Assembly: GCA_023140195.1 (NCBI GenBank)
Contig: JAGLME010000032.1
Location: 52,220-116,219 of the forward strand
Length of the DNA: 64,000 bases
Direction of reading: 5' to 3'
Source of the DNA: Thermoplasmata archaeon
Lineage (GTDB): Archaea; Thermoplasmatota; Thermoplasmata; RBG-16-68-12; SOIM01
This document shows, piece after piece, positions 3,101 through 35,846 of the stretch; position 1 is the first letter of the stretch; every line of letters begins with the position of its first letter. The notes under the pieces were generated by a model that did no database searches, was not told the origin of the DNA, and was given only the letters and a program-made list of their open reading frames with translations. The position numbers and the translations under genes are program-made.

Positions 3101-4114
3101 ATGAGAGAAGTATCCCCGAAGAAAGTGGAAATGGTCGCTGCTCTTGTAGACGCCTTTGTGAACAGCCCTGTGATCGGTGTTGCCAGGGTGGAGGGCATTC
3201 CCGCCCCCCAGATGCAGCAGATGAGAGCTGGATTGAGGGGAAAGGTCGGACTGGTCGTCTCAAAGAACAGGTTCATCAACATGGCTCTCGTGGAAGCCTC
3301 CTCAAAGAAGAAGGGCCTCGAGAAGCTGAGCAAAGTGGTGGATGGACAGACCGCAATGGTGTTGTCCGACATCAATCCCTTCAGACTCTTCAAGGAACTT
3401 GAATCAACAATGACAAGCGCTCCCGCGAAGGGCGGCGAGATCGCTCCCAGCGACATCATGGTGAGGGCCGGTGACACCCCATTCAAACCAGGCCCGATCG
3501 TCGGGGACCTGCAGAAGGCCGGCATCCCGGCATCGATCGAAGGAGGGAAGGTGGTCATCAAGAAGGACAAGGTCCTTGTTCGGGCGGGCGACAAGATATC
3601 CAAGGATATTGCGAACGCCCTTACGAGGCTGGAGATATATCCGTTGACCGTCGGCCTGGACCTCAAAGGAGCCTATGAGGATGGGGTTTTCTACGAACGT
3701 TCCAGCTTGGCGATTGACGATGAAGAGTATCTGCACAACATCCAGGAAGCTGCGAGACAATCGCTGAACCTGGCGGTCTTTATCGCATATCCCAGCCCCA
3801 TAACGATCCCGATACTTCTATCAAAAGCGTCCAGGGAAGCGTTCAGCCTGGCGATCAACTCCGGGTTCCCGACAAAGGAGACTATGGAGTTCATGTTGCT
3901 GAAGGCAAATGCGGAGATGCTGTCATTGGCCTCCGCCGTCCCTGATGCCTTGGACGACGAGCTGAAGGAGAGATTGTCCGTGTCGCCGCCACCGGAGAAG
4001 GGGCCGGAGGAAGAGGAGAAGGCGGATGACGAGGAAGGAGAGAAGAAAGAAGATAAGAAGAAGGAAGTGAGCGAGGACGAAGCCGCTTCCGGACTAGGCC
4101 AATTATTTGGTTGA
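3101..4114 (+). CDS. rplP0: 50S ribosomal stalk protein P0 (uL10)
   Basis: uL10 N-domain plus the acidic C-terminal tail ending ...EDEAASGLGQLFG, shared with P1. Confidence 0.95.
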   Translation: MREVSPKKVEMVAALVDAFVNSPVIGVARVEGIPAPQMQQMRAGLRGKVGLVVSKNRFINMALVEASSKKKGLEKLSKVVDGQTAMVLSDINPFRLFKELESTMTSAPAKGGEIAPSDIMVRAGDTPFKPGPIVGDLQKAGIPASIEGGKVVIKKDKVLVRAGDKISKDIANALTRLEIYPLTVGLDLKGAYEDGVFYERSSLAIDDEEYLHNIQEAARQSLNLAVFIAYPSPITIPILLSKASREAFSLAINSGFPTKETMEFMLLKANAEMLSLASAVPDALDDELKERLSVSPPPEKGPEEEEKADDEEGEKKEDKKKEVSEDEAASGLGQLFG

Positions 4115-4129
4115 TAAAGAGGTGAGCAA

Positions 4130-4450
4130 ATGGAATACATATATTCCGCAATGGTTCTCCACTCGGCTGGGAAGGAGATCAGCGAGGCAAGCGTGAAGAA
4201 GGTCCTCACCGCGGCGGGAGTCAAGCCTGACGAGACCAGGATCAAGGCTCTCACTGCCGCCCTGGAAGGGGTCGATATCGAGGAAGCTCTTTCTACGCAG
4301 GTTGCACCGGTGGCATCCGCTCCCGCAGCCGCTCCGGCGACTGCCGAGCCAGAGGAGAAGAAGGAAGACGAAGACAAGAAGAAGGACAAGAAAGAGAAGA
4401 AGGCTTCCGAAGAGGAGGCCGCTGCGGGACTTGGAGCTCTCTTTGGGTGA
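4130..4450 (+). CDS. rpl12: 50S ribosomal stalk protein P1 (aL12)
   Basis: 106 aa with an Ala/Pro/Glu-rich hinge and the conserved C-terminal ...[12 protein letters not shown]. Confidence 0.9.
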
Positions 4451-4483
4451 TCCCTGAAGAGCTCTGGTCCTCCAGCCCGTTTC

Positions 4484-4517
4484 GGGGATGAACTCAGTTT
4501 CAGAGTTCATGTCCCGG
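4484..4517 (+). terminator. Imperfect GC-rich hairpin (GGGGATGAACTC...GAGTTCATGTCCC) immediately after the ribosomal-protein operon. Possible transcript 3'-end structure.
   Basis: Inverted repeat seen in the sequence. Archaeal terminators are usually oligo-T, so the function is uncertain. Confidence 0.3.
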
Positions 4518-4690
4518 CAACCTCATCTCAAAACCCTCAGGTACACTCGAACTGCTATCCATTCTGATAATCATCCGTCGAGTTTTGTGTGGACATCTTT
4601 ATAGCCACCTGGCGACACTTCCATTGCATAATCCGTTTGTTGATTGAAGGGACGAAAGGTATCACTGCGGACTTGTAATGGAGGAAACCC

Positions 4691-5746
4691 ATGCAAGGAT
4701 CCGATAAGAAGGCAAAGGCCGAGAATAACACCGAGGACGTGCTTAAGGGTCTGGAACATCTCTTGAGCGAGCTGCCTGGCGATGACGAGAGTGGTATGAT
4801 CGACGACCCAGAAGAAGAGGTCTATCGTCCCGGCCCATGGAGGGGCCTGGACTGGGTATCAAAGGCTCAGGCGCTGAACGAGATGGAGCGGTACAGGGAG
4901 GCTATCCAGCAATGCGATGAGGCTCTCAGTATAAACCCAGGAGACTCAAAGGCCCTCTACGTCAAGGGTGAAGCTTTCAGGGGCATTGGCAACCAGAGAA
5001 AGGCCCTGGAGTGCTACACCAAGGCCGTCAGGGGGAAACCCAACGACGAAGAGATCTGGTACGCGGCAGGGATCGTTCTCAAGCAGATGGGAAAGCTCGA
5101 GGAAGCACTGGTAGCCTTGGAGAAGGCCACTGAGTTCGGAGATACGCATCACGACGCATGGTACGAGAAGGCGGTTGTCCTCAGATTGCTGGGCAGGCCC
5201 CAGGAGTCAAGGTCGTGCTTGGAGAGGGCTTTCAGGAATTATCCTCTTGGCAATGGTGATTCTGAAGACCAGAAGGGAGGACCAGAACCTCCGAGCGGTG
5301 AAACACCAGAGTCTGAAGGTACCTCATATGACGATGAAGAGGAGGAAGAAGGAATCAGCCTGGATAACCTGGACTCATTGTTGGGAGATCTCATGGTCGA
5401 ACCCGAGAAGTCGTCCGATTCCCAGGAATCGATACCCTTCGACCTCGATGATGAGAAGGTCCTTCTCAGTACTCTGAACCAATCCTTGAACATCCAGCAG
5501 ATCAGAAGCCTGGTGAAGATGCCGCTTGTCACATGCTACAAGAAGGTCAGGAAGTTGGAAGAGCTGGGGCTTCTTCGCCGGGTGAAGGTGGAAGTCGTTG
5601 GAACCGACAACAGAAAGCGGATCGGCTATTACAGAACAAATCTGAAGAAGGTCAAGCTCTACTCAAATCAGGGCCAATTGAAGCTCGGCGTGGAGTTCAT
5701 GCAGTTGATACCACAGGCCGAGGAGAAGATCGATCCCAAAGTGTGA
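4691..5746 (+). CDS. TPR-repeat protein with an acidic linker and a C-terminal winged-helix (ArsR/TrmB-like) DNA-binding domain
   Basis: At least three TPR-like helical repeats (ALYVKGEAFRGIGNQRKALECYTKAV; WYEKAVVLRLLGRPQES), a D/E-rich linker, and a C-terminal KKVRKLEELGLLRRVKV...YYRTNL wHTH. Confidence 0.7.
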   Translation: MQGSDKKAKAENNTEDVLKGLEHLLSELPGDDESGMIDDPEEEVYRPGPWRGLDWVSKAQALNEMERYREAIQQCDEALSINPGDSKALYVKGEAFRGIGNQRKALECYTKAVRGKPNDEEIWYAAGIVLKQMGKLEEALVALEKATEFGDTHHDAWYEKAVVLRLLGRPQESRSCLERAFRNYPLGNGDSEDQKGGPEPPSGETPESEGTSYDDEEEEEGISLDNLDSLLGDLMVEPEKSSDSQESIPFDLDDEKVLLSTLNQSLNIQQIRSLVKMPLVTCYKKVRKLEELGLLRRVKVEVVGTDNRKRIGYYRTNLKKVKLYSNQGQLKLGVEFMQLIPQAEEKIDPKV

Positions 5747-5889
5747 GCCCGTAACGGTTCAGGCACAATCCGATCCCGAATTCGACTGGACCTGGACATC
5801 TTTATATTCTCTTATCTATTTCACCCGTTGGTGATGAACGGACTCTTGCTGAGCCTTTCGGGGCTGTGATGAGGATCTTGAGTGCTGAC

Positions 5890-6228
5890 TCAGGCCTTTC
5901 CTGTGACTTTCTTCTTTTCCCTGTTCCTTCTCTGCTTGGCGTTGAAACCCGTGGCCCTTTCCATGAAGGCGTTGTAGTTCTGTATTGTCTTGAGAGCCGT
6001 TGCATCATCCGTGCCCGGATTCATCTCTGTATCCACGAACAGCAGCTTGCCGTCAGTCCACACTGCCAGCTTCTTGAGGGCTCCCCATGAAGCCTCGATC
6101 CTCTCATCCTTCTCTTCCGCTTCTCCAAAAACATCTATGACCAGTTCCTTGAGCTTCTCTCCTTCAATGTTCTTGAAATGGCCCCTTTTAATGTCGAACG
6201 TCTGCATCGGTCCACCACCCATTTTCAT
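5890..6228 (-). CDS. Hypothetical small protein (~113 aa) downstream of the radical-SAM gene and probably co-transcribed with it. The internal start MKMGGGP at 6228 is preferred over the long ORF start at 6327, which would overlap the upstream gene by 88 bp.
   Basis: An ORF with an 11-bp gap after the upstream stop. No recognisable domain from sequence alone. Confidence 0.5.
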   Translation of the reverse strand: MKMGGGPMQTFDIKRGHFKNIEGEKLKELVIDVFGEAEEKDERIEASWGALKKLAVWTDGKLLFVDTEMNPGTDDATALKTIQNYNAFMERATGFNAKQRRNREKKKVTGKA

Positions 6229-6239
6229 ACTGAACTCTT

Positions 6240-7256
6240 TCACCCGTAATATCGCTGAATGTCTATAGAACTTTGCGTGAATCCCTGCAGATCGAGCGTG
6301 TCCATCCATCTCTCCCTGCACCCACACTCCAGGTCCCCGAAGTCGTTCCTCTGACCGAGTGAGTACTCCGCGATTCCCTTCAGCACATCTGCGTCACACA
6401 CGGGGCAGTTGTGAGCGCCCCTCTTCTTCCCCCCGCCGGTGGGTGAGGAAATGATCCTAGGACCCAGACCCTGGCATTCCTCCATTATTCGAACAACCGA
6501 CCATAGCCACGTCGGTCTATACTCGCCTCTCCTCCAGAGTCTTTCCACCAACGTCCCCTTTTGCACGTTGACCGGGTTCAGTGAGATGACATCCGTAACT
6601 CCCTTGATCTGGTTCGCCGAATTCACTGCGTCTCTTATCGCCTCGTTCTCGGTCAGGAAGAGGGGTTTCACGAGAAGGTAGGTCTTGATCGTCGCTCCCG
6701 CCTGCTTGATCACCCCTGCAGCTTTCAGGTAGTCATCATAGGTGAATCCCTTGTTTATCGAGTGTTTGAGGACCATGTCGTTGGCAGATTCCAGACCCAG
6801 TGCCACTTGAAGTCCGGCAACCTGGGAAACACTTTCTTTCAACGACTCTTCAGTGACGTATTGTGGACGTGTCTCTACTATCACTTGCTTGAATCTCTCT
6901 GAGGCGATATCCAGAATATCCGCCCTTGTTTCCCGCGGGATCTCTCTCTCATCCAGGAAACTGCCTGATGTGAACACTTTGAGCATGGTCTGTCCATTGG
7001 ACTTCTCGACAGCTTTCCCGAACTGATGGAGTATGTTCTCTCCGTCCGCATCTGGATGGCAATCGTTGAAGTAGCCGCACATGGTGCAACCCTTCTTTCT
7101 GGCCCAAGAGCATCCTGAAGTTCTCAGTATGACCACCAAGGCATCGACGACCTCTCCGCCCAGTACGTCCTTTTCCGTCCAGCACGAGACGTATTTGTTG
7201 ACATCCCCTTTCGGAAAAACCCTCTTCTCAGGTATGCAGTCCTCCAACTTGGTCAT
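6240..7256 (-). CDS. Radical SAM protein of the TIGR01210-like family (the family that includes the archaeosine-biosynthesis enzyme RaSEA)
   Basis: N-terminal Cys cluster (TSGCSWARKKGCTMCGY) typical of this rSAM family, about 340 aa, plus a second C-terminal Cys cluster (CPVCDAD...CGC). Confidence 0.65.
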   Translation of the reverse strand: MTKLEDCIPEKRVFPKGDVNKYVSCWTEKDVLGGEVVDALVVILRTSGCSWARKKGCTMCGYFNDCHPDADGENILHQFGKAVEKSNGQTMLKVFTSGSFLDEREIPRETRADILDIASERFKQVIVETRPQYVTEESLKESVSQVAGLQVALGLESANDMVLKHSINKGFTYDDYLKAAGVIKQAGATIKTYLLVKPLFLTENEAIRDAVNSANQIKGVTDVISLNPVNVQKGTLVERLWRRGEYRPTWLWSVVRIMEECQGLGPRIISSPTGGGKKRGAHNCPVCDADVLKGIAEYSLGQRNDFGDLECGCRERWMDTLDLQGFTQSSIDIQRYYG

Positions 7257-7290
7257 ATCGAACAGCTCGAATCAGATGGAACGGCCGTGC

Positions 7291-8730
7291 TTACTTCCGC
7301 TGCCCCGCTCTGGGGAGCCACTTAGCCATTGAAAAGCCGTAGAAGGCGACTCCCAATCCTCCGAACAGAATTGCCAGGAACAGCAGAATGTTGAACGTAT
7401 AAGTCACGGTAGACGGCGAGGTTGATGTGTCGAGCTCCATGCCCGTTATGCCACCATCTAAGGTCACCTTGTAAGATCCACTCTCAAAGAGGGCTACCGA
7501 ATCCACCGATCCTGTGTAGACCATGAGAGTGATCAGGCCTGAAATGATGAAGAAGACGATACCCAGCAATACCAGGATGGCGCCGGCCTTCGCAGTTCCG
7601 TCTGACGGGACGACCGCGGGAGCAACGGCTGCTGGCCGTGCAGCTGCTGGTCGGGCCCTGGTTGCAGGTCTTGCGACACCCGGTTTCGCACCGGGCGGCC
7701 TCACGGCGACGGTCACCCTCTGCGGTGGGGCCTTGAGAGGTCTGTATGCTCGACAGCTCCAGCAGTAATACTGCCTGTGCTTGGGCACGTATTTCATGTC
7801 CGAACCGCATGCCGGGCATCGCTTCACCGCTGGAGGTGCTCCAGCTCTCGGCTCGACCTTCTTGACCCCCTCGTACGCCTTGCAGCTGTTACAGTACCAC
7901 CTGTTGTATTCTTTGATGTGTCTGAGAGGTCTCCCGCACGTAGAGCATGTCTTTCCAGGTCTCTTTGCGACTTCTGGAGCTTCTTTCCTGGAAATGGTCA
8001 CCGGAGCGTATGTTCCACAACTCTGGCAGTACCACCTCTCGTATTCCTTGATGTACTTGAGAGGCCTCTTGCACGTGGGGCAGGGTCTCGCTTCTTGTGC
8101 TGGGACCGCTGCCGCGGCAGGGGGAGCAGCAGGCTTGGGCTTCTCTCTGGGAGCATATGACTTGCAGCTGTGACAGTAATACCTATCATACTTCTCAATG
8201 TGTTCGAGCTCCTTCCCGCAAGTTGGGCAGGGACGCTCGATCTTCTCCTTGGGAGGTGGCGGGGCCTCTTCCTCAATGGGTGCGGCGACTTCTTCTTCAG
8301 CGACTTCCTCTTCAGGCTCTTCTTCTGGAGGCTCCTCCTCTTCAGGTGCTTCTTCCTCTTCGGTCTTCTCTTCCTCAGGAGCTTCCTCTTCCTCCTCGGG
8401 TTCTTCCTCAGGAGCTTCCTTTTCTTCCTCTTCAGGTGCTTCTTCCTCTTCGGTCTTCTCTTCCTCAGGAGCTTCCTCTTCAGGCTCTTCTTCCTCAGGA
8501 GCTTCCTCTTCTACCTCTTCCTCGGCCTCCTCTTCTTCACCCTCAATAGGCTCTTCCTCTTCTGGTTCTTCTTCAGCGGGACCTTCGCCAGATATGTAGG
8601 CGTACAACCTGTTCTGTAGATCTTTCTTGACGCCAGAAGTATCAAGGTCGCAGGTCTCACACATGTCCTTCAGTTGGGCCTTCTTAGCTTTCTGTATGTC
8701 TTCCTCCGTGATAGAAGATTCTTCGGCCAT
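7291..8730 (-). CDS. Membrane protein with four regions: an N-terminal SAP-like DNA-binding motif; a ~120-aa poly-Glu/Pro low-complexity region; four tandem C4 zinc-ribbon modules (CPxCG...YxRxYCxxCxxY); and two C-terminal TM helices
   Basis: SAP-like LKDMCETCDLDTSGVKKDLQNRLYAYI. Four ~45-aa repeats each with CxxC...CxxC. Hydrophobic helices ILVLLGIVFFIISGLITLMVY and FNILLFLAILFGGLGVAFYGF. Confidence 0.75.
   Translation of the reverse strand: MAEESSITEEDIQKAKKAQLKDMCETCDLDTSGVKKDLQNRLYAYISGEGPAEEEPEEEEPIEGEEEEAEEEVEEEAPEEEEPEEEAPEEEKTEEEEAPEEEEKEAPEEEPEEEEEAPEEEKTEEEEAPEEEEPPEEEPEEEVAEEEVAAPIEEEAPPPPKEKIERPCPTCGKELEHIEKYDRYYCHSCKSYAPREKPKPAAPPAAAAVPAQEARPCPTCKRPLKYIKEYERWYCQSCGTYAPVTISRKEAPEVAKRPGKTCSTCGRPLRHIKEYNRWYCNSCKAYEGVKKVEPRAGAPPAVKRCPACGSDMKYVPKHRQYYCWSCRAYRPLKAPPQRVTVAVRPPGAKPGVARPATRARPAAARPAAVAPAVVPSDGTAKAGAILVLLGIVFFIISGLITLMVYTGSVDSVALFESGSYKVTLDGGITGMELDTSTSPSTVTYTFNILLFLAILFGGLGVAFYGFSMAKWLPRAGQRK
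8335..8530. repeat. About 90-bp tandem direct repeat (two copies plus degenerate flanks) encoding the EEEAPEEEKTEEEEAPEEEE acidic block of the 7291..8730 protein
   Basis: The string ttcaggtgcttcttcctcttcggtcttctcttcctcaggagcttcctcttc occurs at 8341-8391 and 8431-8481. Shadow ORFs in every frame are artefacts of the low complexity. Confidence 0.65.
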
Positions 8731-8984
8731 TCAATCCGCCTCCTAAATGAAGTCCAATTCCTTGTTGAGTTAGGTCATCTTACGTGTATCTGAGGTAACT
8801 CAAGAACCGGTTGCTGCTTCTCTCCGATGGTTCAAGCGGTCATCTTGTAGCAAGATGTCCCACTGTTTCAGTCAAATAGTCTTAGCCTTATATAACGTTT
8901 AAGGTATACTTGTCTGGCCACCAGATTTCCCATATGCTTTTATATCGTTCTGGATATGGTAACGTCCGCCTCATTTGGGTCTAT

Positions 8985-9056
8985 GCCACCGTAGCTTAGC
9001 TGGTAGAGCGGCTGATTTGTAATCAGCAGGTCGGGAGTTCAAATCTCTCCGGTGGC
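8985..9056 (+). tRNA. tRNA-Thr (anticodon UGU)
   Basis: 72-nt cloverleaf with acceptor GCCACCG/CGGUGGC, D-arm GCUU...GAGC, anticodon stem GCUGA/UCAGC with loop UUUGUAA, and T-arm GGGAG-UUCAAAU-CUCUC. CCA is not encoded. Confidence 0.85.
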
Positions 9057-9206
9057 TTCCATATCTGGTTATTTTCATTCTGTCATAATTATATAATACG
9101 TTCTTTGGACTACTTCCGAAGCGAAAAGAAGTAGGGTAATCCTACGTATGCATGTAGCGGCTTCAAACAATTTCTGTGGCACTGTTAGTTTGTTGGTTGT
9201 GTCAAA

Positions 9207-9953
9207 TCACAGTCCCTTTGCCAAGTTTCTCTTATGAAATTTGCTGGCGATAAGCAAGAAAACGCAGGTGAACAGCATCAAAGCGAGTATGTCCACCGCC
9301 ACGGGAAATGCCGAGGTTCCAGTCAGGCCTGCGTTGAACATATCTACAAGATAGGTAAGGGGAGAGATGTATGCGAGAATCAGACCCATTCCTTCCAGTT
9401 CGGTCAGAGGAATGAAAATCCCGCTGATGAAGATCAATGGGAAGCGTATCAAACTGGAGAACATCATGATGTGGGAAGGGGAGCGGACTGACGGTGATGC
9501 CAGAAGAACGCCGAACGATGCAAAACAGATGGTCCCCAGGACGATAGCCAATCCTAGGAGTATGGGGGCGGTGAATGCGACCTCAAGAAAAAGGACTGCA
9601 ACTGTCATTACAACGGACGTGATGATTAGTCCGAAGAGCGCTCCGGCCAGTACATCCCCGAGTATTATGGTGTTGACGCTGACGGGGTAGGACAGCAATC
9701 TTTCGTAGGTCCCTGCCTGCTTTTCCCACGGTGTGATCAGCGGGCCCACAGATGACGCGGTGAAGAACAACGCCATAGCAAGGAACCCTGGAAAGAACAC
9801 TGACATGTCGATTTTCCTTCCCATGTAGAACGCGAAGAACATGAAGAGCGGGAAAAGGAGGCCGAATATGATTACCGGGGCCTTGTTGTAGTATATCCTT
9901 ATGTTCTTCTCTGCTGTAACTATCACGCCCCGAAGAAAAACAGACTCCTTCAT
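9207..9953 (-). CDS. ABC-2 type transporter permease
   Basis: 248 aa with six predicted TM helices. The 4-bp overlap with the upstream ABC ATPase gene suggests translational coupling. Confidence 0.8.
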   Translation of the reverse strand: MKESVFLRGVIVTAEKNIRIYYNKAPVIIFGLLFPLFMFFAFYMGRKIDMSVFFPGFLAMALFFTASSVGPLITPWEKQAGTYERLLSYPVSVNTIILGDVLAGALFGLIITSVVMTVAVLFLEVAFTAPILLGLAIVLGTICFASFGVLLASPSVRSPSHIMMFSSLIRFPLIFISGIFIPLTELEGMGLILAYISPLTYLVDMFNAGLTGTSAFPVAVDILALMLFTCVFLLIASKFHKRNLAKGL

Positions 9954-11033: not shown

Positions 11034-12245
11034 TTATCTGAATTCCTGGACTATCTTCTCCAGTTCTTCCGCGAAGATCCGAACCTCATCCTCTGTGTTG
11101 TAGATGTAGAAGGATGCACGAGATGAACCCCTAATGCCGTGATCATTGAACCAAGAGTTGTTGCAGTGCATCCCGCTCCTTATCATCACATTGGCCACTT
11201 CATCAAGGATCATTGCCACGTCATGAGGTTCCATTCCATCAATAATGAAGGCGGTGATGCCCCCTCTATACGCTGCGCCCGGTCCGAGGATTGTCAGGCC
11301 TGGAATGTTGGATAGAAGGTCTGTGGCAATCCTGTTCAAGCTCTTCTCGTATTCATGGATCTCTTCCATCCCGATGTTCATCAGGTATTCTACCGCAGCA
11401 CATGTCCCGATTATCCCTGCGAAGTTCTGGAGACCAGCCTCGAATTTCTGCGGAGGCCTCAGCAGCTTGTAGTCGTCATATGTCGTGTCAGCGACCGAAC
11501 TGCCCCCAACCAGGAACGTGTCCAGGCCGTCCAGCAGATCATACTTGCCATAAAGCACCCCCATCCCGCTCGGACCGCACATCTTGTGGATTGAGAAACA
11601 GAGAAAGTCCAAGTCCAATTCCTGCACGTCCATCTTCCGGTGAGGGACTGACTGTGCTCCGTCGAAGAGCACTAATGACCCATTATCGTGAGCGACCTCG
11701 ATCAGATCCTTGGCGGGTACGGTCGAACCGTCCAGGTTGGACACCTCTGCGATACTGATCAGCTTCACGTCCGGGCTCAACTTCTCCTTGAGGTTCTCCA
11801 TGGAGAACGACCCGTCATCGTTTGATTTGAAGATCTGATGTTTGGTTCCGGCTCTAGTAGTCAGAACCTGCCAGGGCACCAGATTGGAATTGTGTTCTTT
11901 GTCTCCGGTCAGGACTATGTCGCCTTTTTTCAGACCCAGAGTGTGGGAGAGTAGGTTGATGCCTTCGGTCGTGTTCTTCAAGAAGATTATCTCTTCCGGT
12001 CTCTCAGCGTTCAACAATCTCTGCAATTGGTCCCTGCTCTCGTCACACCTGATAGTGACCTCTGTGCCGAACTTGTGAACGCTCCTTCCTCCGCATGCTG
12101 GGAACTCGGTGTAATACTCGTTCATTGCATCTATGACCTGCTTGGGTCTCAATGCGGTGCACGCTGTGTCTAAGTAGATTGGCAGCTTGCCATTGATCTC
12201 CTTATGAAGACAGGGGAAGTCTTCTCTGATTCCAGGGACGTCCAT
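11034..12245 (-). CDS. Cysteine desulfurase (class V aminotransferase, SufS/CsdA-like)
   Basis: 403 aa. Conserved PLP-lysine region (FLCFSIHKMCGPSGMGVLYGK) and the C-terminal catalytic Cys region (RSGMHCN). Confidence 0.9.
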   Translation of the reverse strand: MDVPGIREDFPCLHKEINGKLPIYLDTACTALRPKQVIDAMNEYYTEFPACGGRSVHKFGTEVTIRCDESRDQLQRLLNAERPEEIIFLKNTTEGINLLSHTLGLKKGDIVLTGDKEHNSNLVPWQVLTTRAGTKHQIFKSNDDGSFSMENLKEKLSPDVKLISIAEVSNLDGSTVPAKDLIEVAHDNGSLVLFDGAQSVPHRKMDVQELDLDFLCFSIHKMCGPSGMGVLYGKYDLLDGLDTFLVGGSSVADTTYDDYKLLRPPQKFEAGLQNFAGIIGTCAAVEYLMNIGMEEIHEYEKSLNRIATDLLSNIPGLTILGPGAAYRGGITAFIIDGMEPHDVAMILDEVANVMIRSGMHCNNSWFNDHGIRGSSRASFYIYNTEDEVRIFAEELEKIVQEFR

Positions 12246-12342
12246 CGCCCCTCCTAATGCGAAAAGGGGATTAAATCTTTGCTTTTGTCAGAAGAAAGTG
12301 TGCTATCTTATTATATCTGGAGGCGTTTTGGCGACTGGTACG

Positions 12343-13512
12343 ATGCGCATCTGCATGATATCGCGGTCCCTGAAATCTCACACTATCGGGGGAATGGAAT
12401 ACCACATCGATGTTCTTGCGAAAGGCCTCGCTGAGAAGGGTCACTCAGTGACCGTTGTCACCACGAGTCATCCAGAAGGCAAAGAAGCAGAGACTATTGG
12501 TGGCGTACAGATACAATATTTGCCAGGAACGAAACCTGGGGCATATTCGCCAGAATGGTGGCAGAGCAGCGCTGAGAAGATTGAGGAGATTATGGGCGAT
12601 ATAGATGTTCTCCACAGCCAGAGCATCGCATGTTACAGCGCTCTGAACTCGATACGGGACAGCGGCACAGCGTTAATCACAACATCTCACGGGACTCCGA
12701 TAACTGATGCGGTGTCGTACAGCAGAACAGCGGGATTGAAGGCCAGCCCGATTTCCATGGCAAAGACCCTGTACTATTTCAAGCATCACCGGAAGGTGTA
12801 CCGCTCGTCCGAGAAGGTCATTGCAGTGAGCGATCAACTCGCTGAACACATCGTCAAGTGGGGATTCGCTTCGGCCCAGAATGTCGCCACGATCCCCAAT
12901 GGGATAGATCTGGGCAGATTCAAACCCGGATTGGATACGGCTCAGGTCAAAGAGTCTCTCGGTCTTGAAGATGAGAAGGTCCTGCTGTTTCTTGGCAGGG
13001 TCAGAAGGGAGAAAGGCGTTGACCTGGCAATGAAGGCTCTTCCAACACTTCTGAAAAAGGTCGGTCCGGTCAAGCTGGTCATTGTGGGTGAGGGCGATTT
13101 CGATGACAAGGTCATCCCCCTTTCAAAGTCCTTGGGCGTTGAAGACCGAGTACTCGCCGTCGGGAGGATAGAGGAGGAGCTGGTTCCTCTCTACCACAAC
13201 CTAGCAGACGTTTTCCTCATGCCCTCCACCCGATGGGAAGCCTTGCCTCTTTCTCTTCTAGAAGCGATTGCCAGTGGAACCGTGGTGGTTGCGTCGAGTG
13301 TCGGTGGCATCCCGAGCGTGGTTCGCGACGGCTACAATGGATTCTTAATCCAGAAAGGAAGCCTTGAGAGCTTGGTCGATGGATGTCTTCGAGCATTGTC
13401 CTCACCAGGATCTGAGATCTCGGAGAATGCCAGGCTTACTGCAGAAGAGCGATTCGACGTTGGCAAAATGGTGGATATGGTAATCGATCTCTATGAAGAA
13501 GTACTGTCCTGA
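12343..13512 (+). CDS. Glycosyltransferase family 4 (GT-B). The ATG at 12343 (MRICMISRSL) is preferred, with a TATA-like box about 30 bp upstream.
   Basis: GT4 N-terminal domain and the C-terminal EX7E-like region (FLMPSTRWEALPLSLLEAIASGTVVVAS). Confidence 0.85.
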   Translation: MRICMISRSLKSHTIGGMEYHIDVLAKGLAEKGHSVTVVTTSHPEGKEAETIGGVQIQYLPGTKPGAYSPEWWQSSAEKIEEIMGDIDVLHSQSIACYSALNSIRDSGTALITTSHGTPITDAVSYSRTAGLKASPISMAKTLYYFKHHRKVYRSSEKVIAVSDQLAEHIVKWGFASAQNVATIPNGIDLGRFKPGLDTAQVKESLGLEDEKVLLFLGRVRREKGVDLAMKALPTLLKKVGPVKLVIVGEGDFDDKVIPLSKSLGVEDRVLAVGRIEEELVPLYHNLADVFLMPSTRWEALPLSLLEAIASGTVVVASSVGGIPSVVRDGYNGFLIQKGSLESLVDGCLRALSSPGSEISENARLTAEERFDVGKMVDMVIDLYEEVLS

Positions 13513-13515
13513 TTC

Positions 13516-15045
13516 CTATCTCAGCAGTTTCATCCAGATCCTCTTGAGCGGCACTCCGGTTTTCTCCATCATTTCAAGGACAACATTGGAGACTGGTCTC
13601 AGAAGTTTTACCATTATGAGATAGACCACAAGGCCCAGAGGCAGCAGAATGATGACCGGGTTCATCCCAAAGACGGACCCTCCCAGGAACGTCTTCGCAC
13701 CCAGAACAACGGCACCCATCACCAGTGAGGCCAGAAGCACCTTTCCGAGGAACCTTGTCGGGTAGTCGGGTGACACCAGTTTGTGGACCACATACGACTC
13801 GTAGCTTACCCCCAGGATGCCTGCAATCGACGTGCCAATTGCCGCCCCGACCGCTCCATATTCCGGAATGAGAACCAAATTCAAAGCCAGGTTCGAAATT
13901 CCAAAGATGGTCCTTGAGGCCACAAGCGCCTTTTCCCTCTCCATCGCGCTCATGAATGTGGAGGTTATTCCTCCGAGCTTGATCACACAGAAGGACACGA
14001 AGAAGATCGTTAGTATCGGTAGTGCCGCCACATAGTCCACCGGATACAGAAGTTCGATGAGCTCCTTCCCCACAATGATCCCGCCGACGGCGATTGGTAT
14101 TATCGTGAAATAGTTGTACTGAAAGAAGACGGTGTACGTCTTCCTGAGCCCCTCATAGTCTTTCTTCGCGTAGAGTTCTGAGAAGAAGGTCAGGGTTATT
14201 CCGCCTGCCAGTGCCAGGTTAAAGACCGAGACCCCGAGGTAAGCAAGATTGTAGCCAATGAAGTAGAAGCCGATCTCAGCATCCGGCTGGAACCTACCCA
14301 GAAGGATGATGTCCAACTGCTGGCCCAGGAGGACGTTCATTATCGCATACGCGTAGAGGAGGGAGGAGTACTTCACTACCGTTCGGAGGTTCACCTTGTT
14401 TGGTGCGACCTTCGTTGTGAAGACCTTCCTCTTGCTTTCCACCAGGATGATCGTCAGAAATAGGCTCCAAGAGATGAGTTCTGCATAGAGGCCCCCTGAG
14501 ATGTCCCCCATCACCAGTATCAACCCCGTCGCCAGAATCAGGTTGAGGAACCTGGCTGTAACAATGGAGAGATTGGCAACCTTCTGCTCGAAGTAGCTTA
14601 CCAGGAGCGGCCTGAATATCCCCTCAAATCCGTAAGGGATGATTATTATGGCAACCAGTTTGATGTAGAAGGAAAGCCCGCTTTTCGTGAAGATCTGCTG
14701 AGCGATGATGTCCGAACCAAAGAAGAGAATGAGCGAAAGCGACAGTATCACCCCCAACTTGAGGAGAAACATCTTCCTGACCATGTCCACGGTCCTGCCG
14801 GTCTGCCCCTCCACGTGATGGATCGGAACGAACTTGTTTATGGCATACTCAAAACCCATTGTGCTGAGGAGAATGATTGTTGCCAGTAGCTGCAGAAGAA
14901 AGGTCAGCCTTCCGAAGTCATCGGGACTGACTATCCTCGCAATGACGAGTGTGTAAATGAAATTGATTGTAAGGGTGCCAAAAACCCCGACAAAATTCCA
15001 CTTGACACCTCTCACAACCCTGCTGGAGAGTTTCTCAGTGGCCAT
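13516..15045 (-). CDS. Polysaccharide / oligosaccharide flippase (MOP superfamily, Wzx-like)
   Basis: 509 aa, about 12-14 TM helices, and typical Wzx N-terminus (VKWNFVGVFGTLTINFIYTLVIARIVSPDDFG). Confidence 0.85.
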   Translation of the reverse strand: MATEKLSSRVVRGVKWNFVGVFGTLTINFIYTLVIARIVSPDDFGRLTFLLQLLATIILLSTMGFEYAINKFVPIHHVEGQTGRTVDMVRKMFLLKLGVILSLSLILFFGSDIIAQQIFTKSGLSFYIKLVAIIIIPYGFEGIFRPLLVSYFEQKVANLSIVTARFLNLILATGLILVMGDISGGLYAELISWSLFLTIILVESKRKVFTTKVAPNKVNLRTVVKYSSLLYAYAIMNVLLGQQLDIILLGRFQPDAEIGFYFIGYNLAYLGVSVFNLALAGGITLTFFSELYAKKDYEGLRKTYTVFFQYNYFTIIPIAVGGIIVGKELIELLYPVDYVAALPILTIFFVSFCVIKLGGITSTFMSAMEREKALVASRTIFGISNLALNLVLIPEYGAVGAAIGTSIAGILGVSYESYVVHKLVSPDYPTRFLGKVLLASLVMGAVVLGAKTFLGGSVFGMNPVIILLPLGLVVYLIMVKLLRPVSNVVLEMMEKTGVPLKRIWMKLLR

Positions 15046-15098
15046 CTCCCTTCAGCTCGAAAGGTTAATACACGTGCGATAGTTAATGATTAGGGTTC

Positions 15099-16277
15099 AT
15101 GAAAATTCTGATGGCTGCTCCCGCAATCATGATTCCAGAGTCCATCGCTCAGTCAGTTCACCAGCAACAGTTCGCCAAGAACCTGGTGGAGATGGGACAC
15201 GAACTTCATATCGTGTGCAGGAGGCCTCCGGGAAGGGAGGATGTGGAGGAAGGTGTTACATACCATCGCGTCATGTCCGAGGACTTTCCGTTGAAGAGGA
15301 TCGTATTCACTCTCGATGCGGTCAGACGGATGAGGAGATTGTTGGACAGGGAGAATTTCGATGTCATCCACGATAGGGGCTATCTGTTCGGGGCAGTCGG
15401 GACCAAGGTCGGGCTTGAGAAGAGGGTTCCAACCGTTCTGCAGATAGACGACGATTGGGTCGAGACCGAGGCCATGGCATCTCGCATCACCTCCACGCCC
15501 ATCTACAAGATGTCAGCCATGTCCTGGTGCAAGAGCCTTATGAAGAAGTCCAGGGTCATGTTCGCGGTCAGCGAGACCCTGAGGGACCTCGTTTCAGAAA
15601 GATGGGACGCAGAGCCTGAGAGGATCTCGATCGTGCCGAACGGTGTTGAACTGGAGGTCTTCCGGCCTGATGCAGAACCATTGGGCATTAGGAAGGAGTT
15701 GGGCCTGGAAGGCAAGAAGGTCATCTGTTTTGTCGGCGCTCTGGGCCCCTGGCACGGCCTGGAGAACCTCATCAGATGCTTCCCCTACGTGTTGGAGGAC
15801 GTACCAGATGCAGAGCTGGTGCTCGTGGGGTCCATGAAGGAATTCGGCACTTCACATCTGGCTGAGATGGCGAAGGAATACGGCGTTTCGGAGAGGCTGC
15901 ACCTTCTTGGCAGGAAGCTCCCTCATGAGGTTCCCAGGGTACTGGTCGAATCGGATGTGGCCTTGGCGCCTTACCCCGCCAGGGATTTTGGTTTCTCGCC
16001 CTTGAAGCTCTTTGAGTACATGGCTTGCGGCGTCCCGATAGTGTGTTCGGATCTACCGTCCACGCGCGAGATAATAGACCATGACAGGAACGGCCTCCTT
16101 GTACCGCCCGAGGACAGCGATTCTCTTGCTGAGGCGATTGTTCGCGTTCTCGTTGACAAACCTCTGGGTAAGAGATTGTCCGTTGAAGGTCTGAGAAGGG
16201 TCACATCTTTCAGCTGGAAGGAATCCACCAAGAAGTTGGTGAACGTCTACCAGAAAGCTCTGGATCCTACCGCCTAG
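15099..16277 (+). CDS. Glycosyltransferase family 4
   Basis: GT4 motifs (ALAPYPARDFGFSPLKLFEYMACGVPIVCSDLP). Second of three GT4 genes in the island. Confidence 0.85.
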   Translation: MKILMAAPAIMIPESIAQSVHQQQFAKNLVEMGHELHIVCRRPPGREDVEEGVTYHRVMSEDFPLKRIVFTLDAVRRMRRLLDRENFDVIHDRGYLFGAVGTKVGLEKRVPTVLQIDDDWVETEAMASRITSTPIYKMSAMSWCKSLMKKSRVMFAVSETLRDLVSERWDAEPERISIVPNGVELEVFRPDAEPLGIRKELGLEGKKVICFVGALGPWHGLENLIRCFPYVLEDVPDAELVLVGSMKEFGTSHLAEMAKEYGVSERLHLLGRKLPHEVPRVLVESDVALAPYPARDFGFSPLKLFEYMACGVPIVCSDLPSTREIIDHDRNGLLVPPEDSDSLAEAIVRVLVDKPLGKRLSVEGLRRVTSFSWKESTKKLVNVYQKALDPTA

Positions 16278-17956
16278 GCCAATCCCCAGTTGACGTAGTA
16301 GAGTCTGGAATAGCCATTGTCGAACAGTTTCATGAAGGGAGCCTGATCGAACTTGTCCACAGCTTCTGTGCTCGGAATCGGGGCTGGGTTCCATGGGTAG
16401 AGCATCACACCCTTCTCCATGTCCCTGTCATAGGTCACGAAATCCACCCTTTTCTTCCCCGATGGCGCGTTCACTTCCTCCATTTCGTCTCTCGCTTCTT
16501 CAAAGGTGTCCGCCAGCAGGGTGTCCTGAGCAGTGTCCCAGGTCCCGTCTGCGCCTCCGAACCCGAACAACGTCGTCGAGGCCATATGGTCCGATGCCAC
16601 AAGTCCGTCGACATACAAACCGGAGAAGAAGGCGTTTGAGACCAGCTTTGCTGGGACTCCTTCATCCAATCTGTCAAGCAGGTCCTTCTGTGGATGAGCT
16701 GTGGCGGCCAGCATGAAAAGAAGCGTCGTTATCAGAGCCCCCACAACCACCTTTCTTCTCTTGTTGGTGGCGCCAAGAAGTCCTGCCATCCTTGAAAGAC
16801 CGATACCTATCAGGAGAGCGGAGGCAGGCATCATGTACTGCAGGTGTCTGTAAGGGATTATCACGTCGCTTGCGAACATTGAGGCCAAGACCAGAGAAGC
16901 TGTCATCACGACAGACCAGCTCGTTGGATCCATGCCTCTCCTGTAGAAGTCTGAGAATCCCCGTCCGGCAATTCCGAATGCAAAGGTGACCATGAGCGGG
17001 GTGAAAAAGATGAAGGCCCAATCCGAGGGGGTAATCGTGGTTCCGGGGATCTGCACATACACAATGATGGCCATTATGGAGTAGATGGCAACAATTCCGA
17101 TCGAGAACGAAGCCAGTCTATTCATCAGGGTGGGGTACTTCGGACGAAAGCTCCAACCCGCCCTTCTTCTCAGCTTGACCATTGCGTAAAGTCCGACGAT
17201 TGCCAGCGCAAGGACCGCGATAACGACCCACCAAGCACCCAGCACCTTGGACATGACGATATCCCTGAACGGTGCCGCGTAAAGGGCCCAGTAGAGGAAC
17301 GCGGAAGCTACCAGGAAGGTCAGGAACATGACGCTGTGACGGAGCCCCCTGATGTCGGATTTCTTTGAAATGAGCTCCTGGACGAAGACCGCTCCCAGAA
17401 GCGCTATGATAAGGAAGTAGGTCGTCAAGTGATGGGTCATGATCAGGGCAACCGAAGTTGGGTACAGGAGGTAGTACATCTTTGGATTGAACTGCGCCTT
17501 CACGAACAATAGCAGGCAGGTGACGAAGAGCAGGTCACCAACCGAGCCGGGGCTGGCGTGGGATGTCGTGTACACCATGGGCATGGACACCGCCATTACG
17601 CCAGTCGCGATCAAACTGGCAGCGTCTTCGTGGAACAATGTCCTCCCAATGAAGAAGATGGGAAACACGGACAGGGATGCCAGGATGACGGATACCAGTG
17701 AAACCGCCATCGGAAGTGAGACGGTGGTGAACCCGACAACCCCGTTCAGGAAGATCGATCCCGGGAAGTATGGATATGTGAACCCCCAACCGTCATACGA
17801 CAATGATATCGATCCGTTCTCCACCAGACCTCTTGTTATGAAGAAGTACTCTCCGAAGTCTCCGCCCCAATACAGATTTCCCAGCAGCGGGAGCAGGCGC
17901 AAGATGAGTCCCGTTAGGAATATCGATAGAAGTGCAAAGCCAGTGGACTTCCGCAT
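16274..17956 (-). CDS. Large polytopic membrane protein, a putative GT-C-fold glycosyltransferase (PMT/ArnT/AglB-like) with a C-terminal soluble domain. No WWDYG motif, so it is not a canonical AglB/STT3.
   Basis: 560 aa, about 12 TM helices. The first-loop motif YWGGDFGEYFF resembles GT-C acidic loop motifs. Embedded in the glycosyltransferase island. Confidence 0.5.
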   Translation of the reverse strand: MRKSTGFALLSIFLTGLILRLLPLLGNLYWGGDFGEYFFITRGLVENGSISLSYDGWGFTYPYFPGSIFLNGVVGFTTVSLPMAVSLVSVILASLSVFPIFFIGRTLFHEDAASLIATGVMAVSMPMVYTTSHASPGSVGDLLFVTCLLLFVKAQFNPKMYYLLYPTSVALIMTHHLTTYFLIIALLGAVFVQELISKKSDIRGLRHSVMFLTFLVASAFLYWALYAAPFRDIVMSKVLGAWWVVIAVLALAIVGLYAMVKLRRRAGWSFRPKYPTLMNRLASFSIGIVAIYSIMAIIVYVQIPGTTITPSDWAFIFFTPLMVTFAFGIAGRGFSDFYRRGMDPTSWSVVMTASLVLASMFASDVIIPYRHLQYMMPASALLIGIGLSRMAGLLGATNKRRKVVVGALITTLLFMLAATAHPQKDLLDRLDEGVPAKLVSNAFFSGLYVDGLVASDHMASTTLFGFGGADGTWDTAQDTLLADTFEEARDEMEEVNAPSGKKRVDFVTYDRDMEKGVMLYPWNPAPIPSTEAVDKFDQAPFMKLFDNGYSRLYYVNWGLA

Positions 17957-34608: not shown

Positions 34609-35471
34609 CTTTCCTTGTCTCGAGCGTTGGAAGTGGTAGAATGATGACCTTTTGCCAAATTAAGCTTTTCCTCTATTATCCGGTTGGACAGTTCACCGAT
34701 CTCCTTAGGGCTCAACTCTTCCACTCTCCTCTGGGAACCCGGAAGTCCTGAAACGAACTGAGCCATCGATTCCTTGGTGTCTGTGAGTCTCCTCCATTCA
34801 AGAATCAGCGAGTTCCGTATCTGCTTTCGCCTATGGGTGAACAGGGCCTTGACGACCTTGAAGAAATGATCTTCGTCAATGGCCTCGAAGGGCGGACGCC
34901 TGGGCTCGATCCTGACAATTGAAGCGTCCACCCTGGGTTCAGGGTAGAACAGGGTCCTCGGGACCGTCTCGAGAATCAAGCAATTGGCCCTGTAAAATGC
35001 GTTGACCGAGAGCCTGGAATAGTCCTTGTCCCCCACAGATGCCACCAAACGTTCAGCGAACTCCTTCTGATACATCAGTATGCCTGAGTCAAAGGGTACC
35101 TCCAGTAGCTTGAAGGTGATGGGCGATGAGATGTTGAACGGGAGGTTTGAGACCACCTTGTCGAATTCCGGCAGGTCGATCTTGAGGATGTCTCCTCTGA
35201 TGATCTCCACATCCTCATATGTTCGCTCGATGTAGTCCGCTGCCGCTGGATCAGCCTCCACCGCAACAACCCTCTTGGCCCTCGTGGAGAGAATGCCAGT
35301 GAGCGTCCCCAGTCCTGGACCTATCTCGAGCACAGTGTCGTTCTTTCCCACCTTGGCGTATTGCACTTGTCTGTTTGCGGTCGCCTCATCACTGAGGAAA
35401 TGCTGGCCCAGTCTCTTGTTGGGAGTCATCCCAAGATCTCTTATCCTGGCTTTGAGTTCAGAAACCTCCAT
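34605..35471 (-). CDS. ksgA: 16S rRNA (adenine1518/1519-N6)-dimethyltransferase KsgA/Dim1. The internal start MEVSELK is preferred.
   Basis: LGQHFL motif, SAM-binding EIGPGLGTLT, and catalytic NLPFNISS. Confidence 0.9.
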   Translation of the reverse strand: MEVSELKARIRDLGMTPNKRLGQHFLSDEATANRQVQYAKVGKNDTVLEIGPGLGTLTGILSTRAKRVVAVEADPAAADYIERTYEDVEIIRGDILKIDLPEFDKVVSNLPFNISSPITFKLLEVPFDSGILMYQKEFAERLVASVGDKDYSRLSVNAFYRANCLILETVPRTLFYPEPRVDASIVRIEPRRPPFEAIDEDHFFKVVKALFTHRRKQIRNSLILEWRRLTDTKESMAQFVSGLPGSQRRVEELSPKEIGELSNRIIEEKLNLAKGHHSTTSNARDKER

Positions 35472-35564
35472 CTTGGCGACATCGATGACTGGCCCTATAA
35501 TAGTTTTTTGGAGATGCGATCCATCCAACAAGTATTATATATCCATGCACCTAATGAAACGAAA

Positions 35565-35846
35565 ATGCTCATCCCTTTCCAGACCAACGAGAGCGGCCCT
35601 GCATGCTGGCTTTTAGGACTTGTTCTCCTTCTTCTCTTGATCGCGCTGGTCATCTTGTTCTTCTATCAGCGATACATAGCCAGCAAGAAGGCGGTGCATC
35701 ACCTCTGTGATTACTGCGGGCACATGGTAACTGCGGTATCAGACTGCCATCATGCCATGGTCAGGGAGAGGTTCCTTCACGGGGTTTGCATGGAATGCAA
35801 GAAGGAATGCAAGCTTGTTTGCGCAAGGTGTAAGAGACCTCTGTAA
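35565..35846 (+). CDS. Small membrane-anchored Cys/His-rich (zinc-ribbon-like) protein, ~93 aa: one TM helix plus a C-terminal CxxC...C..HH...C..C...C..C cluster
   Basis: Internal Met with a TTATATAT box about 25 bp upstream (leaderless geometry). TM helix WLLGLVLLLLLIALVILFFY. C-terminus HHLCDYCGHMVTAVSDCHHAMVRERFLHGVCMECKKECKLVCARCKRPL. The upstream part of the listed ORF overlaps ksgA on the opposite strand and is rejected. Confidence 0.5.
   Translation: MLIPFQTNESGPACWLLGLVLLLLLIALVILFFYQRYIASKKAVHHLCDYCGHMVTAVSDCHHAMVRERFLHGVCMECKKECKLVCARCKRPL

Follow-up and report, generated by a model that had tools for sequence, protein, structure and literature searches.

The 64,000-nt stretch of the Thermoplasmata archaeon contig JAGLME010000032.1 that we analysed (the window; coordinates are counted from its first letter) carries at 7291..8730, on the minus strand, a gene with an ATG start that encodes a protein of 479 amino acids (aa) plus stop. 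From its N- to its C-terminus, the protein consists of a SAP domain, an acidic disordered tract, four zinc ribbons, a basic linker, and a hairpin of two transmembrane (TM) helices. This domain order had been proposed in an earlier reading of the letters alone (the original prediction), and it is borne out by Pfam, a family profile, hydropathy and AlphaFold2. On the same strand, 34 nt past the stop codon, lies the gene of the radical-SAM archaeosine enzyme RaSEA (6240..7256, TIGR01210 364.1 bits vs 212.15), which turns preQ0-lysine-tRNA into archaeosine. Another 32 nt downstream it is followed by a Ta0095-like gene of the DUF5611 family (5890..6207, minus strand, PF18446 91 bits), whose solved relative Ta0095 (PDB 2JOI, E=3.8e-5) has no assigned function. 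The SAP/zinc-ribbon gene is divergent from a tRNA-Thr(UGU) gene at 8985..9057 on the plus strand, as the original prediction had stated.

This arrangement is not peculiar to the window. A protein search returned 15 relatives, and a scan in which each GTDB species was represented by a single genome located relatives only in uncultured Thermoplasmata/Methanomassiliicoccales metagenome-assembled genomes (MAGs), the closest of which, from Methanomassiliicoccales CSMAG_371, is 87% identical. In GTDB genomes and JGI metagenomes, homologues that bear the hairpin stand directly upstream of RaSEA, on the same strand, in 70 independent loci, mostly with a gap of 33–104 nt. RaSEA adjoins in all 41 metagenome loci that contain a hairpin-bearing homologue together with downstream sequence, and the GTDB and JGI loci include no case of such a homologue with room downstream but no RaSEA. 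DUF5611 comes after RaSEA in 51 of the 52 loci that reach at least 1.5 kb downstream, and the order of the three genes recurs on contigs of divergent homologues. The pairing is kept though the SAP/zinc-ribbon protein is only ~30%, and RaSEA ~45%, identical between lineages. On the upstream side, tRNA-Thr(UGU) is divergent in 23 of 27 orthologous genome loci, and the flank beyond it is variable, with an ABC transporter in 1–2 and SufS in 5 of 37 loci. On the downstream side, the L12-L10-L1-L11 ribosomal cluster beyond DUF5611 is also conserved (L10 is within range in 21 of 22 loci), with occasional insertions such as a TPR gene in 3 of 22. Considering (i) the common strand, (ii) the short gaps, and (iii) the variable upstream flank, the SAP/zinc-ribbon gene, RaSEA and DUF5611 are predicted to form a conserved three-gene operon. 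The strict pairing with RaSEA and DUF5611 tells us more about the gene than any other feature, and it had escaped the original prediction.

The open reading frames (ORFs) parsed from these loci contain between two and six ribbons and always end in the two-helix hairpin, so that the search for orthologues and for variation in ribbon copy number suggested by the original prediction was positive on both counts. In the 479-aa protein, hydropathy delineates membrane segments at residues 377–411 and 441–470. An AlphaFold2 model, built from a 13-sequence alignment, places TM helix 1 at residues 378–406 (7513..7599) and TM helix 2 at residues 440–474 (7309..7413; these and all further features of the gene are on the minus strand unless stated otherwise). 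The helices are joined by a short acidic outside loop with a predicted β-hairpin (residues 407–439, 7414..7512, net charge −3) and flanked by a basic Pro/Ala/Arg-rich linker on one side (residues 334–376, 7603..7731, net +5 over the 30 aa preceding TM helix 1) and by a basic cytosolic tail, KWLPRAGQRK, on the other. The same positive-inside pattern runs through 26 orthologues: the flank before TM helix 1 is net positive in nearly all of them, the loop is neutral or acidic, and the tail is basic.

In one relative that is 66% identical (P0001, locus L001), a clean in-frame deletion has removed the stop codon together with the spacer and the initial 8 codons of RaSEA, resulting in an 803-aa fusion that would put RaSEA ~25 residues from the membrane. 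As this natural fusion to a cytosolic iron-sulfur enzyme requires a cytoplasmic C-terminus, and as the positive-inside pattern across orthologues points the same way, both termini are predicted to be cytoplasmic (N-in/C-in). Hydropathy, the model, the charge pattern and the fusion thus agree with the two TM helices and the membrane-tethered character that had been proposed. The charge of the cytoplasmic part is strongly segregated, with −65 in the acidic tract vs +28 in the half formed by the ribbons and the linker (isoelectric point 9.75), and the most basic modules are the membrane-proximal ones.

The SAP domain maps to residues 12–46 (8593..8697), where Pfam PF02037 matches with 30.3 bits against a cut-off of 23.9 (E=3e-7), which raises the SAP-like motif of the original prediction to an above-threshold family assignment. 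AlphaFold2 builds this region as a helix-linker-helix (helices 17–26 and 35–47) with a predicted local distance difference test score (pLDDT) of ~92. In Foldseek, it matches the solved SAP domains of Hcc-1, DEK, 3′hExo and Tho1 with best probabilities of 0.97–1.0, at E-values of 0.1–1 that are not significant. Residues L20, G33 and R41 are invariant, in keeping with the SAP signature. A family-specific hidden Markov model finds the domain in 27 of 27 genome-derived orthologues at E≤2.5e-10. Its position is N-terminal in the subgroup of the 479-aa protein, and two to three ribbons come first in most other orthologues.

The four zinc-ribbon modules occupy residues 163–197 (8140..8244, family profile E=1.7e-17, pLDDT ~88), 212–246 (7993..8097, E=4.6e-18, pLDDT ~90), 257–290 (7861..7962, E=1.1e-15) and 300–333 (7732..7833, E=5.4e-13). 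All four retain the full C4 ligand set with the spacing CxxC-x14-CxxC, and are modelled as confident small β-hairpin units (pLDDT ~88–91). With two CxxC knuckles and predicted β-hairpins, they can be assigned to the zinc-ribbon fold and are predicted to chelate Zn. The tandem of four C4 ribbons described in the original prediction is therefore real, but the copies are not nearly identical: modules 2, 3 and 4 share 46%, 43% and 35% of residues with module 1, respectively. Among curated families, only Zn_ribbon_6 (PF07191) exceeds its threshold (30.8 bits vs 25), and in four relatives its score is near or below the cut-off of 25 (19.7–26.2 bits). Every other zinc-ribbon family is sub-threshold in the 479-aa protein, including PF01599 (eS31/S27a; 10.2 vs 22.3 bits), and an NCBIfam scan of the protein gave no significant match. 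Fold matches of the ribbon modules in Foldseek include TFS4/Rpb9, TFIIB and YfgJ. The full-length model returned no match with an E-value of 0.001 or lower, because it resembles beads on a string.

Combining these findings, we propose that the 479-aa protein, which is confined to a clade within Thermoplasmata, serves as a multivalent scaffold that is anchored in the membrane and binds nucleic acids. It would be transcribed together with RaSEA and DUF5611 and would probably cooperate with them, a reading to which we assign a probability of about 40%. What is established computationally is the domain architecture, the membrane topology, the strict pairing of the genes and the one fusion. Binding of nucleic acids is suggested by membership in the SAP family, by the basic ribbon half, and by a weak likeness of the ribbons to RNA-binding ribosomal ribbons. 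In the proposed mechanism, the SAP domain and the basic ribbon array would bind RNA or DNA, the most likely ligand being tRNA because of the operon with RaSEA; the RNA-binding proteins 3′hExo and Tho1 are among the fold matches of the SAP domain. On the inner side of the membrane, the scaffold would hold or concentrate RaSEA, its substrate or both, perhaps along with DUF5611, and would assist archaeosine (G+15) formation as an accessory factor. A flexible spacer is one possible role of the acidic tract; alternatively, it could be an intramolecular mimic that masks the basic ribbons.

Several observations weigh against this proposal. SAP domains classically bind DNA rather than tRNA. RaSEA occurs without the SAP/zinc-ribbon protein in other Thermoplasmata (loci L087 and L088). 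The fusion is known from a single metagenome contig, from sample 3300041085, and no further RaSEA fusion is present among the 120 best RaSEA homologues or in the 41 metagenome loci. Since the ribosomal cluster and tRNA-Thr are conserved as well, part of the adjacency may represent frozen synteny. The same ribbon module is found in lineages that lack the RaSEA operon, on kinases, an MMPL transporter and PRC-barrel proteins, and its ligand would therefore be generic and not RaSEA-specific. Binding of RaSEA and of tRNA by the scaffold is, finally, a prediction.

The SAP domain and the topology also bear on a different role, in which the protein would be a tether between the chromosome and the membrane: the SAP domain and the basic ribbons would bind genomic DNA, the hairpin would fix this DNA to the membrane, and the proximity of RaSEA would be a matter of synteny. 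Such a tether would be a functional analogue of the eukaryotic LEM/HeH proteins of the inner nuclear membrane or of bacterial DNA-membrane tethers. In Heh2 and MAN1, an N-terminal HeH motif is followed by a long linker and two TM helices, and both ends of the chain are on the nucleoid side. The N-terminal SAP domain, long disordered linker, two TM helices and nucleoid-side ends of the 479-aa protein reproduce this layout (for the LEM/HeH family, see PMC4810098 and PMC3337167). The SAP family binds DNA, and its solved matches here include Tho1 and DEK on nucleosomal DNA; the entire region, ribosomal cluster included, is syntenic; and for zinc ribbons that are joined to cell-division domains in archaea, a DNA-anchoring role has been predicted (PMC5906684), a parallel to the PRC-barrel proteins that carry the module in Thermoproteota. 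A tether, however, leaves without explanation the absolute adjacency, the short same-strand gaps in 70 loci and the in-frame fusion to RaSEA. Furthermore, Pfam detects neither an MSC nor a winged-helix domain in the 479-aa protein, and its binding to DNA is itself a prediction. We thus regard a pure tether as unlikely. A hybrid of the two ideas, an archaeal LEM/HeH counterpart in which the SAP domain and the ribbons hold the nucleoid or nascent RNA at the membrane while RaSEA docks on the cytoplasmic tail, is an analogy-based long shot. If true, it would mean that these Thermoplasmata make archaeosine on a membrane-bound nucleic-acid platform and not in solution.

The scaffold reading also has to accommodate the wide distribution of the ribbon module. 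A set of 124 orthologue modules yields the consensus P-CPTCG-[KR]-[EP]-L-[TS]-[YF]-[IV]-x-x-Y-D-R-[WY]-Y-C-Y-x-C-x-x-Y-A-P-K and the invariant signature CPxCG-x12-[YW]YC-xx-C-xx-Y-AP. The knuckles are 14 residues apart in all 124; as their fourth ligand, 110 modules have Cys, 12 have Glu and 2 have Asp. A 67-module profile, run over 1.84 billion cluster representatives, matched 2034 proteins at E≤1e-3, of which 305 reached E≤1e-10; a single protein may contain as many as 10 modules. These proteins fall into several architectures: SAP and ribbons with a C-terminal hairpin; soluble arrays of 5–10 ribbons; multi-TM proteins with C-terminal ribbons; and kinases, MMPL and PRC-barrel proteins. The lineages include Thermoplasmata, Bathyarchaeia and Nitrososphaeria. 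Among PDB sequences, the sole whole-module match of the profile is eS31/S27a, borderline at E=0.0016, which has in common with the module YDRxYC and the 14-residue knuckle spacing; the other PDB matches are generic CPxCG knuckle matches. By these comparisons the ribbon appears to be a distinct module within the zinc-ribbon fold, one that has no dedicated curated model and that most resembles the eS31/S27a and YfgJ ribbons.

The module is appended to otherwise unrelated proteins (P0081, P0085, P0055, P0139; loci L059, L060 and L072 at ~5660–6150; L049 at 5521–6090), among them Ser/Thr protein kinases with four copies, an MMPL/RND-type transporter with six, and a membrane protein with TPR and helix-hairpin-helix (HhH) motifs. 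It is also present on PRC-barrel proteins of Nitrososphaeria and other Thermoproteota and at the C-terminus of 4-TM proteins of Bathyarchaeia. Soluble paralogues in loci L016, L018–L023, L110 and L120–L159 (match at ~4000–6000 of each locus) make up a conserved family; they have 5–7 ribbons, no SAP domain and no TM helix, and never adjoin RaSEA. Their conserved neighbours are three ~160-aa membrane-anchored proteins, the first of which alone has a weak, sub-threshold Ig-like match, and two class-V aminotransferase genes, and these neighbourhoods gave no functional clue. In distant orthologues (P0005–P0014), a His-rich stretch, H-x-G-H-x-H-C, leads into the second ribbon (for example, P0005 residues 52–60), and in loci L012 and L014 an H-R/A-H-G-x-P motif is found directly ahead of TM helix 1. 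These His-rich motifs and the replacement of the fourth Cys by Glu or Asp in 14 of 124 modules (CYAE..., CYKD...) may create extra or altered metal sites.

A module this promiscuous, in 2–10 copies on Ser/Thr kinases, an MMPL transporter, multi-TM and PRC-barrel proteins, could instead be a protein-docking device. The ribbons would then recruit a common archaeal partner (cytoskeletal, division or signalling) to the membrane, and the SAP domain and the acidic tract would be auxiliary. Ribbons of the RanBP2/NZF type do bind proteins, the invariant surface residues of the module are mostly aromatic (Tyr or Trp), and distant orthologues have neutral or acidic modules at the N-terminus, where the net charge is −5 to +1. 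Against this, RaSEA/DUF5611 is the sole partner indicated by the gene neighbourhood, the membrane-proximal modules and linkers are strongly basic, and in sequence the module comes closest to the ribosomal ribbons that bind RNA. Docking as the main function therefore strikes us as rather improbable.

The acidic tract that separates the SAP domain from the ribbons is a poly-Glu/Pro region (residues 52–160, 8251..8577) predicted to be disordered, with pLDDT below 40 over residues 52–156. It contains a 90-bp tandem repeat with the 30-aa unit EEAPEEEKTEEEEAPEEEE... (8336..8520; Tandem Repeats Finder: 2.1 copies, 91% matches, score 308). The E/P-rich block and the repeat of the original prediction are both present, but the block is not made wholly of it: the repeat spans 185 of ~327 bp (~60%), and the remainder of this GAA-rich region consists of degenerate 18–30-bp periods. 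The length of the tract differs among close relatives, in which ribbon 1 begins anywhere between residues 156 and 180. An ancestral origin of the repeat was considered and rejected: the closest relatives at species level, L007 and L009, lack it, and it is therefore a recent local duplication.

A low-complexity tract with such a recent duplication could raise the suspicion of an artefact or of a non-functional ORF, resulting from a mis-assembled repeat or a decaying gene, and one relative is indeed broken. In locus L089 (3917–4966 of the locus; CP070767.1, a complete MAG chromosome), a frameshift within ribbon 2 breaks the orthologue into one piece of 118 aa and another of 225 aa, which represents either an assembly error or a pseudogene. 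The same 479-aa protein, however, is recorded on 6 contigs, and the two places shown for these correspond to two different samples, so that the acidic tract is no assembly artefact; the sequencing error that the original prediction had allowed for is thereby ruled out. Moreover, full-length orthologues in 70 loci keep the SAP domain, the ribbons and the hairpin, the ribosome-binding site is strong and conserved, and the domains are confidently predicted by AlphaFold2. Conservation effectively refutes this explanation, and we give it next to no weight.

Two conserved elements lie upstream of the gene. A GGAGG ribosome-binding site (8739..8743) lies 8 nt before the ATG and is unchanged in five aligned relatives. 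A TTATATAA box (8888..8895, minus strand), with a substitution in one of six aligned sequences, is a candidate archaeal promoter of the SAP/zinc-ribbon gene and would give it a 5′ untranslated region (UTR) of ~135 nt. The divergent intergenic region (8731–8984, 254 bp) contains two conserved TATA-like boxes, one at 8888–8895 for the protein gene and one at ~8937–8946 for tRNA-Thr. The putative ~135-nt UTR is partly conserved; its folding is not distinctive (z=−1.55), and an Rfam scan of 7000..9300 found the tRNA only.

The original prediction had also drawn a comparison to two other proteins of the window, one starting at 24270 and a small one near 35565. This kinship was not borne out: when all six frames of the window were scanned with the module profile, the 7291..8730 ORF alone matched, and the presence of the module in the other zinc-ribbon proteins was rejected. 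The 1543-aa protein at 24270–28901 (plus strand) has an N-terminal HhH, double ribbons of a different, generic type (DZR/Zn_ribbon_3), TPR, a lamin-tail domain (LTD) and DUF11/DUF7507 repeats, and is predicted to be a further surface-type protein with a cytoplasmic head that binds nucleic acids. For the small protein (35361..35846, plus strand), there is a weak LITAF-like ribbon match (20.8 bits, below the cut-off of 23.8). Both are only loosely analogous to the 479-aa protein.

Two neighbourhoods deserve a separate description. In locus L087 (3850–5004 of the locus; CP070798.1, a Thermoplasmatales MAG), the gene ahead of RaSEA overlaps it by 4 nt and encodes an unrelated membrane protein of 384 aa with a near-threshold EMC6_arch two-TM hairpin. 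By its gene overlap, this would be a second instance in which translation of RaSEA is coupled to that of a membrane protein; a hairpin common to it and the SAP/zinc-ribbon family was looked for and rejected. In the window itself, a SufS-like cysteine desulfurase adjoins a glycosylation cluster (11034–17956, from the annotation of the identical contig L002). The cluster comprises two GT4 glycosyltransferases, a Polysacc_synt/MurJ-like flippase and a 560-aa protein without a Pfam match, the 562-aa L001 counterpart of which has a weak PMT_2 match.

The archaeosine machinery of Thermoplasmata is already atypical, and to our knowledge RaSEA has so far been described only in soluble form, as the partner of ArcS. 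A companion of RaSEA that is anchored in the membrane would indicate an unrecognised component, or an unrecognised sub-cellular site, of archaeosine synthesis in these archaea. Because the module is present in 2034 cluster representatives, identification of its ligand would help to annotate many proteins, including kinases, transporters and proteins of the cell-division type. Prokaryotic membrane-tethered SAP proteins would also bear on the origin of LEM/HeH-type tethers. No paper, Pfam family or NCBIfam model was found for the architecture or for its link to RaSEA, and literature searches on the architecture, DUF5611 and Ta0095 returned nothing relevant. The SAP domain, the zinc ribbon and the TM hairpin belong to kinds already described; the novelty lies in the subtype of the module, in the architecture and in the operon.

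One of the closest known systems is the ArcS-RaSEA complex of Thermococcus kodakarensis, in which RaSEA needs a partner protein and acts only within the complex with ArcS (PMC11298593). The SAP/zinc-ribbon gene is co-oriented with a bona fide RaSEA, 34 nt upstream of it, and fused to it in one relative. The 479-aa protein, however, is membrane-bound and does not resemble ArcS: neither Pfam nor NCBIfam detects TGT-like catalytic, C1/C2 or PUA domains in it at E≤10.

In architecture, a parallel is provided by the LEM/HeH proteins (Heh1/Heh2, MAN1, LEM2, Src1), which likewise combine an N-terminal helix-extension-helix motif, a long disordered linker and a pair of TM helices, so that both termini face the nucleic acid. 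There is no homology beyond the SAP/HeH motif class, and the parallel is one of analogy only. Following TM helix 2, LEM/HeH proteins have an MSC winged-helix domain, whereas the 479-aa protein has its 10-residue tail; zinc ribbons, a prokaryotic host and an operon link to a tRNA enzyme further set it apart. With the SAP proteins (PF02037; Tho1, DEK, SAF-A, 3′hExo), it has in common a 35-residue helix-linker-helix at the N-terminus that superposes on solved SAP domains. The known members are mostly eukaryotic, nuclear and not membrane-anchored, whereas the SAP domain described here is archaeal, resides on a two-TM protein, and is combined with an array of zinc ribbons. The ribbons, in turn, are comparable to eS31/S27a (PF01599) and YfgJ (PF07191, PDB 2JRP/2JNE), from which they differ by their own invariant signature. 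Furthermore, unlike eS31/S27a, the module forms tandem arrays of 2–10 copies and is not part of a ribosomal protein.

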